NCBI GenBank assembly: GCA_028689585.1
Contig: JAQVCW010000009.1
Location: 14,314 to 38,313, forward strand
Length of the DNA stretch: 24,000 nt
Direction: 5' to 3'
DNA from: Lachnospiraceae bacterium
Lineage (GTDB): Bacteria > Bacillota > Clostridia > Lachnospirales > Lachnospiraceae
How positions within the stretch are numbered: the first letter of the stretch is position 1; each line of letters opens with the position of its first letter. A program made the position numbers and the translations under genes. A model generated the notes under the pieces. The model saw only the letters and a program-made list of their open reading frames with translations, made no database searches and was not told the origin of the DNA. This document shows positions 16,474 through 21,709 of the stretch, piece after piece.

Positions 16474-16578
16474 AAAAAACGCCTGAACACAGTTCATAAG
16501 GAATAAACGGTGCCCAGGCGGTCGGCTCATATACTAACGTGCTCCCTGTGGTTCATCCACTTCCGCCGGTCACACGTA
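16474..16578 (-). promoter_or_regulatory. ZTP (pfl-motif) riboswitch with terminator expression platform
   Basis: The reverse strand reads GUGACCGGCGGAAGUGGAUGAACCACAGGGAGC ... GAGCCGACCGCCUGGGCACCG. This matches the two conserved ZTP subdomains, including the CCGCCUGGGCA pseudoknot element. The CGCCUGGGCAC segment can instead pair with the downstream GUGUUCAGGCG, which is followed by UUUUUU (16479..16474). It sits in front of purO-purH, a classic ZTP regulon. Confidence 0.85.
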
Positions 16579-16585
16579 TATTTTT

Positions 16586-18292: not shown

Positions 18293-18332
18293 TTTTTCAT
18301 GTTTGTCAGCAGTATCACAAATTTTATCGTGA

Positions 18333-18633
18333 GTTATGATTCACAGCAGACGCGGCATGCCTGCCAGGGCATCTGACCGTCTGGCACAGGAAAAGACCGC
18401 GCAGCACTGTTTCGGAGTCCAAGAGCATCTATGCTCTCTGAAATGCAGCTCAGACAGGAATAAGAGAGCCTGACTCGCCACAGGCTCAGACAAAGGCTCT
18501 CTTATTCCATCGCCGCATTCCAGAGAGCAAGATGCTTAGAACTCCTGCAAATGTGCGGCTGCGGTCTTTCACGTGCCAGACGGTCAGATGCTCTGGCAGG
18601 CATGTCGCTGTTAATTGGCCGTGAATGGTAATC
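18333..18633. repeat. ~300-bp imperfect palindrome (arms ~130-140 nt), MITE-like, flanked by the 8-bp direct repeat TATCGTGA
   Basis: Arms pair around a centre at ~18480. For example, 18356-18387 is the reverse complement of 18573-18604 with 1 mismatch in 32, and GGAATAAGAGAGCC pairs with GGCTCTCTTATTCC at the apex. The termini GTTATGATTCAC and GTGAATGGTAATC are inverted. TATCGTGA occurs at 18325-18332 and 18634-18641. Confidence 0.7.
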
Positions 18634-18662
18634 TATCGTGAACTTTTCAGGAGAAAAAGTGG

Positions 18663-18690
18663 TTGACAATAAAAAAAAGTATGCTATAAT
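18663..18690 (+). promoter_or_regulatory. putative sigma-A promoter of the metal-resistance operon
   Basis: TTGACA (18663-18668), 16-nt spacer, TATAAT (18685-18690). Confidence 0.6.
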
Positions 18691-18966: not shown

Positions 18967-19007
18967 GAACATTAAAAATTAGGTAAACGAAACACAGACA
19001 GTTGAAA

Positions 19008-19083
19008 GTCATGCAATGAAAATCATGCAATAAAAGTCATGCAATAAAAGTTATGCAATAAGAATTATGCGGTTGAAAATCAC
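19008..19083. repeat. 14-bp tandem repeat, 5 full copies plus a partial one
   Basis: gtcatgcaatgaaa / atcatgcaataaaa / gtcatgcaataaaa / gttatgcaataaga / attatgcggttgaa / aatcac. Located between the HMA stop and the ATPase RBS. Confidence 0.9.
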
Positions 19084-19114: not shown

Positions 19115-20983
19115 TTGAACAAGAAACAGAAAAAGGTTTTATTTCGAATTATTTTAGCGGCTGTACTTATTGCTGTACTCAGCTTCCTTCCATTGAAAGG
19201 ATATTTGAAATTCGGGCTGTTTATGGTGCCTTATCTGGTCATTGGATACGATATTCTGATAAAAGCAGGAAAAGGTATTTTGAACCGGCAGGTATTTGAT
19301 GAAAATTTCCTGATGGCGGTAGCTACGGTGGGAGCGATCATTCTGGGAGATTATAAAGAAGGCGTAGCGGTTATGCTGTTCTACCAGATAGGGGAGCTGT
19401 TCCAAAGCTATGCGGTGGGCAGAAGCAGAAGAAATATCAGTGAGCTGATGGACATCCGCCCGGACTATGCAAATGTGGAACAGAACGGAACGCTGGAAAA
19501 GGTGGATCCGGATGAAGTGAAAACAGGTTCGATTATCGTAGTTCAGCCGGGGGAAAAGGTTCCTATTGACGGAATTATCACAGAAGGTACCTCATCCTTA
19601 AATACAAGCGCACTGACTGGTGAGAGCCTGCCAAGAGAAGCCGGAGTGGGAGATGAGATCATCAGCGGCTGCATTAATATGACCGGTGTGCTGAAGATCC
19701 GCACTACAAAAGAGTTTGGCGAATCAACGGTTTCCAAAATCCTGGATATGGTAGAGAATGCCAGCTCGAAAAAATCCAGATCTGAGAATTTTATTTCCAG
19801 ATTTGCCCGGATTTATACGCCGGCCGTCTGCTATGGAGCAGTGGCGCTGGCCGTTCTTCCGCCGCTGGTTCGTATGCTGGCTATGGGGCTGACACCGGAG
19901 TGGGGAGACTGGATTTACCGTGCACTTACTTTTCTGGTTATTAGCTGCCCCTGCGCACTGGTTATCAGCATTCCTCTCAGCTTTTTTGCAGGAATTGGCG
20001 GTGCCAGCAGGGAAGGTGTGCTGGTAAAGGGTTCCAACTATCTGGAAATTTTATCTCAGGTGAAGTATGTGGTATTTGATAAGACTGGAACTATGACCCA
20101 GGGCGTATTTGAGGTCAATGGCATTCATCACAACGAACTGGATAAAGAAACACTGCTGGAGTATGCTGCATTGGCGGAAAGCGCTTCTTCCCATCCTATC
20201 AGCGTCAGTCTGAAAAAGGCCTATGGAAAAGCAATTGACCGGACCAGAGTAGAGGATATCAAAGAAATCAGCGGAAATGGAGTCACTGCAAACGTGGATG
20301 GAAAGTCCGTTGCGGTGGGCAATACAAAACTGATGGAGTCACTTGGAGTTGCGTATAAAGATTGTCACCAGGTGGGGACGATCGTTCATATTGCGATAGA
20401 TGGAGCCTATGCGGGCCATATTCTGATCTCCGATACGATAAAGGCGCATGCGAAAGAAGCTATTTTGGCACTGCATAAGGCGGGAATTGCCAATACAATC
20501 ATGCTGACCGGTGACCGGAAAAATGTGGCGGATTATGTGGCAGAGGAACTGGGGATCCAAACCGTCTACAGCGAGCTGCTTCCGGCAGATAAGGTGACAA
20601 AGGTGGAAGAACTTCTGGAACGCAAAGAAGGAAAAGAAAAGCTGGCCTTTGTGGGAGACGGCATCAATGATGCGCCGGTATTGTCCAGAGCGGATATTGG
20701 AATAGCGATGGGAGCGCTTGGCTCCGATGCGGCAATTGAAGCGGCGGATGTGGTACTGATGGACGATGATCCGTTAAAAATCTCCAAAGCAATCCGGATT
20801 TCCAAAAAGTGTGTCCGGATCGTTTATGAAAACATCTATTTTGCAATCGGGATCAAGATCATCTGCCTGATTTTGGGGGCTCTTGGGATAGCAAATATGT
20901 GGCTGGCGATTTTTGCGGATGTAGGCGTCATGGTAATCGCAGTTCTGAATGCGATACGGGCATTATTTGTAAAAAAACTGTAG
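19115..20983 (+). CDS. cadA: P1B-2-type heavy-metal (Cd/Zn/Pb-type) translocating P-type ATPase without a fused HMA domain
   Basis: 622 aa with a TTG start after AGGTGA (19105-19110). Motifs: SCPCALVISIP (CPCx4SxP), FDKTGTMT, SSHP, MLTGD, GDGINDAP and a C-terminal TM segment ADVGV (DxG). These are the signatures described for Zn/Cd/Pb pumps. Confidence 0.9.
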   Translation: MNKKQKKVLFRIILAAVLIAVLSFLPLKGYLKFGLFMVPYLVIGYDILIKAGKGILNRQVFDENFLMAVATVGAIILGDYKEGVAVMLFYQIGELFQSYAVGRSRRNISELMDIRPDYANVEQNGTLEKVDPDEVKTGSIIVVQPGEKVPIDGIITEGTSSLNTSALTGESLPREAGVGDEIISGCINMTGVLKIRTTKEFGESTVSKILDMVENASSKKSRSENFISRFARIYTPAVCYGAVALAVLPPLVRMLAMGLTPEWGDWIYRALTFLVISCPCALVISIPLSFFAGIGGASREGVLVKGSNYLEILSQVKYVVFDKTGTMTQGVFEVNGIHHNELDKETLLEYAALAESASSHPISVSLKKAYGKAIDRTRVEDIKEISGNGVTANVDGKSVAVGNTKLMESLGVAYKDCHQVGTIVHIAIDGAYAGHILISDTIKAHAKEAILALHKAGIANTIMLTGDRKNVADYVAEELGIQTVYSELLPADKVTKVEELLERKEGKEKLAFVGDGINDAPVLSRADIGIAMGALGSDAAIEAADVVLMDDDPLKISKAIRISKKCVRIVYENIYFAIGIKIICLILGALGIANMWLAIFADVGVMVIAVLNAIRALFVKKL

Positions 20984-20997
20984 AGAGCCTTGAGTTA

Positions 20998-21022
20998 CAA
21001 GAGTGTGCAGAGCACACTCTTG
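20998..21022 (+). terminator. perfect 11-bp hairpin right after the ATPase stop (weak or partial terminator)
   Basis: CAAGAGTGTGC-aga-GCACACTCTTG followed by TTCTTGT. The T-tract is poor, so read-through into the repressor gene is likely. Confidence 0.4.
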
Positions 21023-21322
21023 TTCTTGTATAGGTAAGTACGCCTATACAAGAACAGCCTTCGGCATATGGATGCGCAGCTACGCGCGCGGAACGAAAGC
21101 TGTGCTGCCGGAAAAACTGGCTTGCGGGATGCGCGAAGCACACTTTCGTTCTCGTATAGGAAAATGCCCTATACGAGAACAGCCTTCGGCATATGGATGC
21201 GCAGCTACGCGCGCGGAACGAAAGCTGTGCTGCCGGAAAAACTGGCTTGCGGGATGCGTGAAGCACACTTTCGTTCTTGTATAGGTAAATGCGCCTATAC
21301 GAGAACAGCCTTCGGCATGTGG
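21012..21322 (+). repeat. ~125-bp tandem repeat, 2.5 copies (starts at 21012, 21138 and 21263), hairpin-rich
   Basis: Direct reading shows units 126 and 125 bp long and nearly identical. Each carries a 13-bp stem GTTCTYGTATAGG-(7-8 nt)-CCTATACRAGAAC, a GCC-TTC-GGC hairpin, a GCCGG-AAAAA-CTGGC hairpin and a long-range stem CGAAAGcTGTGC / GCACACTTTCG. Confidence 0.9.
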
Positions 21323-21352
21323 AAAAATAATCAAGAAAGAAAAGGTGAAAAA

Positions 21353-21709
21353 ATGACAGAAGAACTGGAAAAATGCAGCAGTATAGAAATTCATGAGGAT
21401 TTGCTGAAAATTGTAAATGAGACGATGCCGGAGGAAACGGAGCTCTATGATCTGGCTGAATTATTTAAAGTATTTGGTGATTCTACCAGAATACGGATTC
21501 TGTTTGTCCTGTTTGAAGCGGAGGTATGTGTGTGCGATCTGGCGGCAGCGCTGAATATGACTCAGTCTGCTATCTCGCATCAATTGAAGATTCTTAAGCA
21601 GAGTAAACTGGTGAAGAACAGAAGAGAAGGAAAGTCCGTTTTTTATTCTCTGGCAGATGACCATGTCAGAACGATCATCGACCAGGGACGGGAGCATATC
21701 GAGGAATAA
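21353..21709 (+). CDS. ArsR/SmtB-family metal-sensing repressor (CadC/CzrA-like)
   Basis: 118 aa from ATG 21353, after AAAGGTGA. Contains ELFKVFGDSTRIRILFVL, the CVCDL alpha3 metal-site motif and the HTH LNMTQSAISHQLKILK. The ORF-track version (21068..) extends into the repeat array and is not credible. Confidence 0.88.
   Translation: MTEELEKCSSIEIHEDLLKIVNETMPEETELYDLAELFKVFGDSTRIRILFVLFEAEVCVCDLAAALNMTQSAISHQLKILKQSKLVKNRREGKSVFYSLADDHVRTIIDQGREHIEE

Follow-up and report, generated by a model that had tools for sequence, protein, structure and literature searches.

Between the gene for a P-type ATPase metal pump and that of an ArsR/SmtB-family repressor, the window, i.e. the whole stretch of 24,000 nt of Lachnospiraceae DNA that was analysed, carries a tandem array of hairpin-forming units. 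The question raised by this locus is whether the array constitutes a regulator of the metal operon, as a sequence-only reading had suggested in proposing that it tunes the dosage of the repressor, or a local instance of a BOX/REP-like family of modular intergenic repeats, which the same reading had offered as an alternative. The features concerned are the following.

18663..18690, + strand: sigma-70-like promoter upstream of the HMA gene (TTGACA, 16 nt, TATAAT plus TG extension; 12 of 12 hexamer matches)
19115..20983, + strand: gene for a P-type (E1-E2) ATPase metal pump (PF00122, 4.9e-47; PF00702, 1.8e-25)
20997..21024, + strand: remnant of unit 0, a terminator-like 12-bp hairpin ending TCTTGTT, recognised by its likeness to the 3' hairpin of the family, GAGAGTGTGC-GAA-GCACACTTTTGTT
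21025..21150, + strand: unit 1, 126 nt, with boundaries set by analogy with the clean insertion described below
21151..21275, + strand: unit 2, 125 nt; C:G at the variable pair of hairpin A, whose loop has 7 nt
21276..21323, + strand: unit 3, truncated, hairpin A (T:G) and small hairpin only (HMM positions 1-54)
21353..21709, + strand: gene for an ArsR/SmtB-family repressor, HTH_5 (PF01022, 7.5e-17)

The tandem array is confirmed as real and far beyond chance. The spacer between the ATPase and ArsR genes measures 369 nt and is filled by 2.5 copies of a 125/126-nt unit, as had been read from the letters, and Tandem Repeats Finder agrees in reporting 21011-21323 with a period of 125, 2.5 copies, 93% matches and a score of 556. 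An inverted-repeat search placed 13-nt stems at 21022-21034/21043-21055, 21148-21160/21168-21180 and 21273-21285/21294-21306. On direct reading, copies 1, 2 and 3 carry T:A, C:G and T:G, respectively, at the variable position of this stem, which bears out the paired change described at the outset, and the loops of hairpin A are likewise free to differ between copies (TAAGTACG, AAAATGC and TAAATGCG). A second stem, ACAAGAGTGTGC / GCACACTCTTGT, spans 20997-21023 and recurs in the later units as GAACGAAAG / CTTTCGTTC; its presence and recurrence had been noted correctly, while the form in front of copy 1, formerly taken for a variant first arm, is the remnant of a further unit, because the sequence at 20997-21024 corresponds to the hairpin at the 3' end of the family consensus. 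Unit 1 consists of hairpin A, a small GCC-TTC-GGC hairpin, the conserved core GGATGCGCAGCTACGCGCGCGG and the long hairpin C. The whole 369-nt spacer folds with -160.5 kcal/mol, corresponding to a z-score of -10.3 versus 100 shuffles.

A consensus scan found just one strong sigma-70-like promoter in the metal operon, at 18663-18690, and no promoter-like site between 20983 and 21353, in or after the array. Expression of arsR therefore presumably depends on read-through of the array, in keeping with the proposal that transcripts from the pump gene must cross it to reach the repressor. The open reading frame at 21068-21709 (213 aa) is the ArsR frame extended upstream through the repeats and not the gene, whose true start is located at 21353 (118 aa); orthologues align from residues 1-5. 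Automatic annotation could thus over-extend the ArsR gene through the repeats, and the stable hairpins of the array could pass for a riboswitch-like leader.

The unit is by no means restricted to this spacer. In the genome of the window (4.14 Mb, 65 contigs), a BLAST-type search gave 70 matches to one unit, and an iterated nhmmer search yielded 59 hits and subsequently, with a full-length model, 66 hits that correspond to 61 loci on both strands. According to crude gene calls, the copies are nearly all intergenic. Truncation is frequent, as only 21 of the 66 hits reach the 3' end, and further tandem arrays are present at C40:27845-28103 and C25:18856-19112. The unit comprises about 126 nt, from CTCGTATAGG to CACACTTTTGTT, and these ends are not inverted repeats of each other, i.e. 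terminal inverted repeats are absent. The consensus of 133 positions contains, in this order, a T-run, hairpin A, which has about 13-16 bp and carries ATAGG...CCTAT in its top part, a small GCC-TTC-GGC hairpin that is optional, the conserved core with the consensus GGATGCGCAGCTNCGCGCGCGG, and the long hairpin C (GAACAAAAGCTGTGCT ... AGCACACTTTTGTTC), which is Y-shaped with a branched interior. The small hairpin is swapped in some copies for other sequences that still fold, including one with a C(UUCG)G-type loop, and the long C stem faces competition from a local 3' hairpin, GAGAGTGTGC-GAA-GCACACTTTT with UUUUGUUC after it. Coding potential of the core was rejected by eye, since the period is not divisible by 3 and the variable interior contains indels. 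The core GGATGCGCAGCTNCGCGCGCGGAACAAAAGCTGTGC is nearly invariant across genera, though its conservation in foreign copies is partly built in because part of the core served as the pattern used to find them. A diverged subfamily was encountered in a related genome (G002 L026:1420-1852), where a three-unit array with a 142-nt period carries an extra hairpin (GCAGCTCGCAGAGAAGAAGCCTGCTCGCGC) inserted in the core.

The distribution of the family is patchy. It is present in 6 of 18 sister species of the genus and absent from all 22 other genera of a first sample, while the B-C core was detected in 5 of 200 genera (one genome per genus, sampled from the same family) and not found in the remaining 195. 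A scan of 185,579 species genomes revealed at least 112 loci with the exact pattern, and all but one of the matches listed belong to Lachnospiraceae or unclassified Bacillota, their hosts including Kineothrix alysoides, Schaedlerella arabinosiphila, Lachnospiraceae bacterium M18-1 as well as metagenome-assembled genomes (MAGs) of Roseburia, Dorea and Eubacterium. Among the matches listed, foreign copies are mostly full length (105 of 130 hits at the 3' end). The search of the genome and its relatives that had been recommended thus returned 61 own loci, a third of the sister species and a few other Lachnospiraceae genera, and the alternative of a BOX/REP-like family is well founded. Rfam contains no family matching the region at gathering thresholds, and at E<=10 only a chance miRNA match (E 4.6) appeared; plasmid and phage collections gave no match to the element, and the searchable literature gave nothing relevant by keyword or sequence string. 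The earlier statement that no described element with such a sequence was known to the reader holds in these sources as well. Hence, the family appears to be undescribed and confined to some Lachnospiraceae, while its kind (REP/BOX/MITE/PATE-like) is well known.

Pairing within the unit was evaluated on a MAFFT alignment of 75 full-length copies, all distinct and most of them foreign; the structure for the pair counts was given by hand because RNAalifold missed hairpin C on this alignment. With the hand-specified structure, 87.5% of cells in the 75-copy alignment are paired, and the covariation score amounts to 0.189 versus 0.090 in shuffles, a value reached by 0 of 500 shuffles, while controls with slid register remain at or below 0.087. 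Cells changed on both sides number 200 in this alignment versus 70 expected, and in the outer stem of hairpin C one pair alternates between U:A (43) and C:G (19). The covariation seen in three copies therefore persists strongly on a larger set, and the stems of the family are clearly under selection.

The T:G pair of copy 3 had been read as a wobble indicative of selection on the sense transcript, and this argument does not carry over to the family as a whole. In the own genome, hairpin A cells are Watson-Crick in 678 cases, G:U-type in 36, A:C-type in 43 and other in 64. Isolated mismatches of hairpin A, as scored by a per-copy hairpin finder in 142 copies, are G:T-type in 16, A:C-type in 25 and other in 23 instances. 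The four hypervariable pairs of hairpin A (columns 8/68, 10/66, 11/65 and 12/64) display 124 double changes and only 4 wobble cells in the 75-copy alignment. An excess of G:U over A:C at paired positions, and with it a sense-RNA asymmetry, is consequently absent from the own genome, the 142 copies and the 75-copy alignment. Consensus folds of the sense and antisense strands are equally stable (-60.7 versus -61.1 kcal/mol). Moreover, the T:G and T:A stem variants also occur in copies on other contigs, so that the single T:G of copy 3 is one intermediate of this kind; G:T is, besides, the mismatch best tolerated in a DNA hairpin.

How the units reach their sites is illustrated by G015 and G018, two sister genomes that are close enough for intergenic alignment. 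A clean filled/empty site (L173 in G015 versus L197 in G018) has flanks that are 100% and 97% identical and 126 extra nt in G015. This insert, CTCGTATAGG...CACACTTTTGTT, lies directly after a host hairpin plus TTATTTT and directly before ATGTGAG, and the junction is devoid of target duplication, showing just a 2-nt TT ambiguity. By means of this filled/empty pair, the only clean one, the unit boundaries are fixed and the T-run is identified as host sequence; at two further sites, one of these genomes carries the element and the other lacks it, with more diverged junctions. A 132-nt indel between these genomes (L182 versus L179) and a 127-nt one near L175 proved unrelated to the element.

The same context recurs throughout the family. 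A strict hairpin located at most 7 nt from the 5' end was found for 21 of 46 own solo copies, compared with 4 of 46 in the mirrored 3' control, and among the matches listed for 48 of 77 foreign solo copies, compared with 7 of 77 in the control. The 45 nt of the left flank fold with a mean of -15.1 kcal/mol versus -5.7 and -6.4 for the right flank. The hairpin preceding the 5' end is GC-rich and unrelated in sequence to the element, whereas the unit itself ends in a hairpin followed by TTTTGTT. Since a resident 3' end and the intact upstream host site both re-present the preferred context, head-to-tail arrays joined at ...TTTYGTT/CTYGTATAGG... are predicted. Precisely this junction is present in the window at 21150/21151 and 21275/21276 and also in other arrays; tandem copies share the TTTTGTTC junction in the window array, in both further arrays of the genome and in other genomes.

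The array is thus quite probably made up of a dispersed repeat that is non-coding, modular and rich in palindromes, resembles a non-autonomous mobile element, settles after terminator-like hairpins and piles up in arrays. According to the proposed mechanism, the unit would insert directly 3' of a GC-rich hairpin plus T-run without target-site duplication; once it is in place, the A-run on the 3' side of hairpin A would pair with the T-run of the host. By virtue of its own 3' hairpin and TTTTGTT, a resident copy would recreate the preferred target, while the original hairpin and T-run of the host would be preserved in front of the first copy. Successive insertions at the same site, perhaps assisted by unequal recombination, would then give rise to head-to-tail arrays that share the GTT/GTTC junction. 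In the lineage of the window, the element would have landed in the short spacer of the pump-repressor operon and later been trimmed at both ends. The stems would be selected as a DNA palindrome, or on both strands alike, most likely because a putative enzyme acting on single-stranded DNA recognises them.

Array formation does not necessarily require re-insertion, as slippage or unequal crossing-over alone could account for the arrays. In its static form, this explanation holds that one inserted copy became three units by replication slippage or unequal recombination between hairpins. It draws on the identity of 93-97% between units 1 and 2, which are closer to each other than to most other genomic copies, and on the mosaic-like unit 3, whose 5' arm and loop start correspond to unit 1 and whose 3' arm corresponds to unit 2. 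On the other hand, adjacent units in the arrays of other genomes often possess different, internally complementary stems, which is better accommodated by independent insertions, and the junction of the array is the one predicted from the clean insertion. Static duplication is hence a possible but less than likely source of the window array.

The dispersed, mobile-element-like repeat favoured here has counterparts in several known systems. With REP/BIME it shares short non-coding extragenic palindromes in tens of copies, mostly at gene 3' ends, the occurrence of module clusters and mosaics, and stems kept by compensatory change. The REP of Proteobacteria, by contrast, is a single palindrome of 20-40 nt with a GTAG or CGTC head, whereas the element comprises 126 nt with three or four hairpins; in addition, REP is paired with RAYT (TnpA-REP), whereas here the RAYT-like gene is devoid of a flanking element and the host belongs to Lachnospiraceae (Bacillota). 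BOX of Streptococcus pneumoniae (boxA-boxB-boxC) is similar as a Firmicute family of modular intergenic repeats with variable modules, stable predicted folds, an internal module repeated in tandem and no known dedicated transposase. The element differs from it by the lack of sequence similarity (no Rfam hit), by the head-to-tail repetition of the whole unit, and by its placement after a hairpin plus T-run with an insertion junction that was resolved cleanly. Like bcr1 of the Bacillus cereus group, RUP, Correia and ERIC, the element is non-autonomous, about 100-160 nt long, intergenic, stably folded and patchy in distribution. Classical MITEs carry the terminal inverted repeats of a parent IS and generate target duplications, neither of which was found for the element. 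PATEs, which derive from IS200/IS605, likewise have no terminal inverted repeats, cause no target duplication, insert at a short specific sequence, rely structurally on hairpins and show an orientation bias relative to the replication strand. PATE-type traits of the element are its insertion without duplication next to a T-run and a strand bias of 84-93%; in contrast to PATEs, however, no Y1 was detected in 4 of the 6 genomes that carry the element, some of them incomplete MAGs, and Y1 is present in most element-free ones.

As regards a mobilising enzyme, no known transposase co-occurs with the family in 19 genomes of the genus, which is weak evidence because many of these are incomplete MAGs. 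In the own genome, the RAYT-like ORF and the Y1 and Y2 transposases have no copy of the element at their flanks and no sequence in common with it. A RAYT origin was rejected: the RAYT-like ORF scores 74 bits (cut-off 80), is not flanked by element copies and does not co-occur with the family in the genus, being found in G003, G006, G010, G013 and G016 and not in the element-rich G002, G011, G012, G015 and G018. An IS200/IS605 origin was discarded as well. Y1 (PF01797) is present in 14 of the 19 genomes, which include incomplete MAGs, and was not found in G002, G011, G012 and G015, i.e. it does not co-occur with the family, and the ends of the resident IS605 are unrelated to the element. The left ends of resident IS605 share a 9-10-nt GAACAAAAG word with the element, a single non-significant observation. 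An IS91 relationship, to which the GTTC junction had drawn attention, failed on the same grounds: Y2 is without co-occurrence, PF04986 being found only in G000, G009 and G017, and the G000 copy has no sequence in common with the element. Two pairs spanning about 810 nt, considered as candidates for a longer parent element, proved to be copies truncated at the 5' end beside ordinary genes, and a search of the own genome for 5'/3' motif pairs at most 6 kb apart found no parent IS with shared ends. Independently of the family, an IS605-type element, in which tnpA (Y1) precedes a tnpB-like gene, resides at G000 C33:19912-20271 and downstream (L145), and copies or fragments of it are also found on C38, C46 and C6.

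These comparisons allow a bolder formulation, namely that the family represents a new kind of non-autonomous mobile DNA, which homes to a terminator-like hairpin plus T-run through A-run/T-run pairing, on one replication strand and with the aid of an enzyme other than Y1, Y2 or RAYT, and thereby forms arrays. This full formulation is rather unlikely to be correct in all its parts. Homing of this sort has a precedent in class C group II introns, which home just downstream of the stem-loops of intrinsic terminators, recognised as a DNA structure, and thus avoid gene damage; the element differs from them in its size of 126 nt and in the lack of ribozyme domains or of an Rfam intron match at E<=10. 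If confirmed, homing to terminator-like hairpins would constitute another independent case of such a safe haven. If true, it would also mean that the arrays of a terminator-homing element within operons could become read-through attenuators usable by selection.

The orientation of the copies bears on both the mobility of the family and a possible benefit to the host. With home-made gene calls, the upstream gene lies on the strand of the element for 45 of 59 own copies, and in an earlier count 28 contexts were co-directional sense versus 9 antisense, with 11 convergent versus 3 divergent. The GC skew of the genome is strong. Of the own copies, 51 of 61 have their sense strand on the G-rich strand, as do 77 of 83 foreign copies among the matches listed, or 84-93% overall. 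Where skew and neighbouring gene are in conflict, the orientation tracks the skew by 6:2 and 13:2. This hints at a replication-strand-specific DNA mechanism, and the orientation evidence as a whole is suggestive only, because the gene calls behind these statistics are crude home-made ORF scores and gene strand and skew are confounded.

Part of this material would be equally expected if the element were a host-beneficial RNA module of 3' ends, whose hairpins, on read-through transcripts that contain it, shield the 3' ends of mRNAs or serve as a backup for termination, as proposed for REP/BIME and BOX; placement after terminators would then reflect function instead of insertion preference. Such a role would account for the strong placement after a hairpin plus T-run, for the prevalence of same-strand upstream genes, for the substitutes of the small hairpin that still fold, including the C(UUCG)G-type loop, and for the local 3' hairpin with its UUUUGUUC tail in competition with the long C stem. 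Yet most transcripts should end at the upstream terminator, before the element is reached, and the 5' hairpin is equally common with an upstream gene on the other strand (7 of 13) or on the same strand (30 of 50). Furthermore, conflicts between gene strand and GC skew resolve toward the skew, G:U is not enriched over A:C, and the family is patchy (6 of 18 sister species, 5 of 200 genera). A 3'-end module is therefore an improbable description of the family.

The history of the spacer itself is informative as to a dedicated function at this locus. An ArsR orthologue is encoded in 13 of 18 sister species, and in 10 of these 13 an ATPase gene lies directly upstream. The orthologous spacers of these 10 species range from 19 to about 195 nt, some measuring just 19-57 nt, and the pair is almost certainly co-transcribed in some species. 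In none of the 10 species did nhmmer detect the element in the ATPase-ArsR spacer, which includes G002, G011, G015 and G018, where the family is present elsewhere in the genome. Because 10 species keep the gene pair without the element, the array is a lineage-specific addition to a conserved two-gene arrangement. The pump-repressor spacers of G015 and G018 (L152:1343-1501 and L157:1374-1492) contain other small GC hairpins, CCGCCTGTCGGCGG and GCCCCTTCGGGGC, and a longer GCTTCGGAAACAC... stem, which may belong to a different repeat family in the same spacer.

A dedicated cis-regulatory RNA, in which tandem hairpins selected on the sense transcript set the read-through from pump to repressor by termination, processing or stabilisation, is very unlikely in the light of these findings. 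Its appeal lies in the position of the array between two genes with no promoter-like site in or after it, such that arsR needs read-through, as well as in the extreme stability of the spacer RNA, the terminator-like score of the first hairpin and the compensatory pair that distinguishes copies 1 and 2. The unit, however, occurs also at about 60 unrelated loci, the orthologous spacer lacks the array in all 10 sister species, and the T:A and T:G variants recur in copies elsewhere in the genome. No sense-strand wobble excess was found, and the array is trimmed at both ends, as decaying insertions would be. Tuning of the repressor dosage by the array as a selected regulator, as formerly proposed, is thus not upheld, given a unit that is neither specific to nor conserved at the locus and shows no signature of sense RNA. 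An effect of the array on arsR read-through and repressor dosage is nevertheless plausible as a predicted side-effect of the inserted repeat: RNA polymerase would have to cross about 330 nt of highly stable structure to reach arsR, whose expression may be lowered or altered. For the metal-resistance operon, the array is probably of minor importance.

The core GGATGCGCAGCTNCGCGCGCGGAACAAAAGCTGTGC is more conserved across genera than would be strictly required of a selfish element, which could point to a host function, either RNA or protein binding. That core and palindromes are primarily sites for a host nucleoid-associated protein, topoisomerase or recombinase, as reported for BIMEs and with a polarity tied to replication, is scarcely to be expected, since the near-invariance of the core across genera, the location of the sense strand on the G-rich strand and the apparent selection on the DNA duplex or both strands are offset by the absence of hits in 195 of 200 sampled genera and 12 of 18 sister species, by many truncated copies, by insertion polymorphism between close relatives and by a core conservation in foreign copies that is partly due to the search pattern.

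For the dispersed repeat as such, a family of gut Lachnospiraceae is now defined by its consensus, the limits of its unit, the context of its targets and one cleanly resolved junction of insertion. It is useful for strain markers, in the diagnosis of assembly gaps and as a starting point for finding the mover in Clostridia.

Other repeats and structured elements were observed in the window. A long palindromic element of about 300 bp at 18325-18641, between a DUF1846 gene and the promoter of the metal operon, constitutes a separate dispersed family with at least 10 near-full copies of 84-96% identity on contigs C7, C38, C31, C1, C45, C36 and others. The 14-bp repeats at 19005-19070 (4.7 copies), between the HMA and pump genes, have no further copy in the genome. 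At 1110-1249, a 56-bp tandem double-hairpin unit is present in 2.5 copies and recurs at C37:79478-79761 and on C26, C11, C40 and C39; because of these copies elsewhere in the genome, it is another small dispersed repeat and not a locus-specific leader. A ZMP/ZTP riboswitch of known class (RF01750, 64.1 bits) is located on the - strand at 16505-16583, upstream of IMP cyclohydrolase-like and AICARFT genes.
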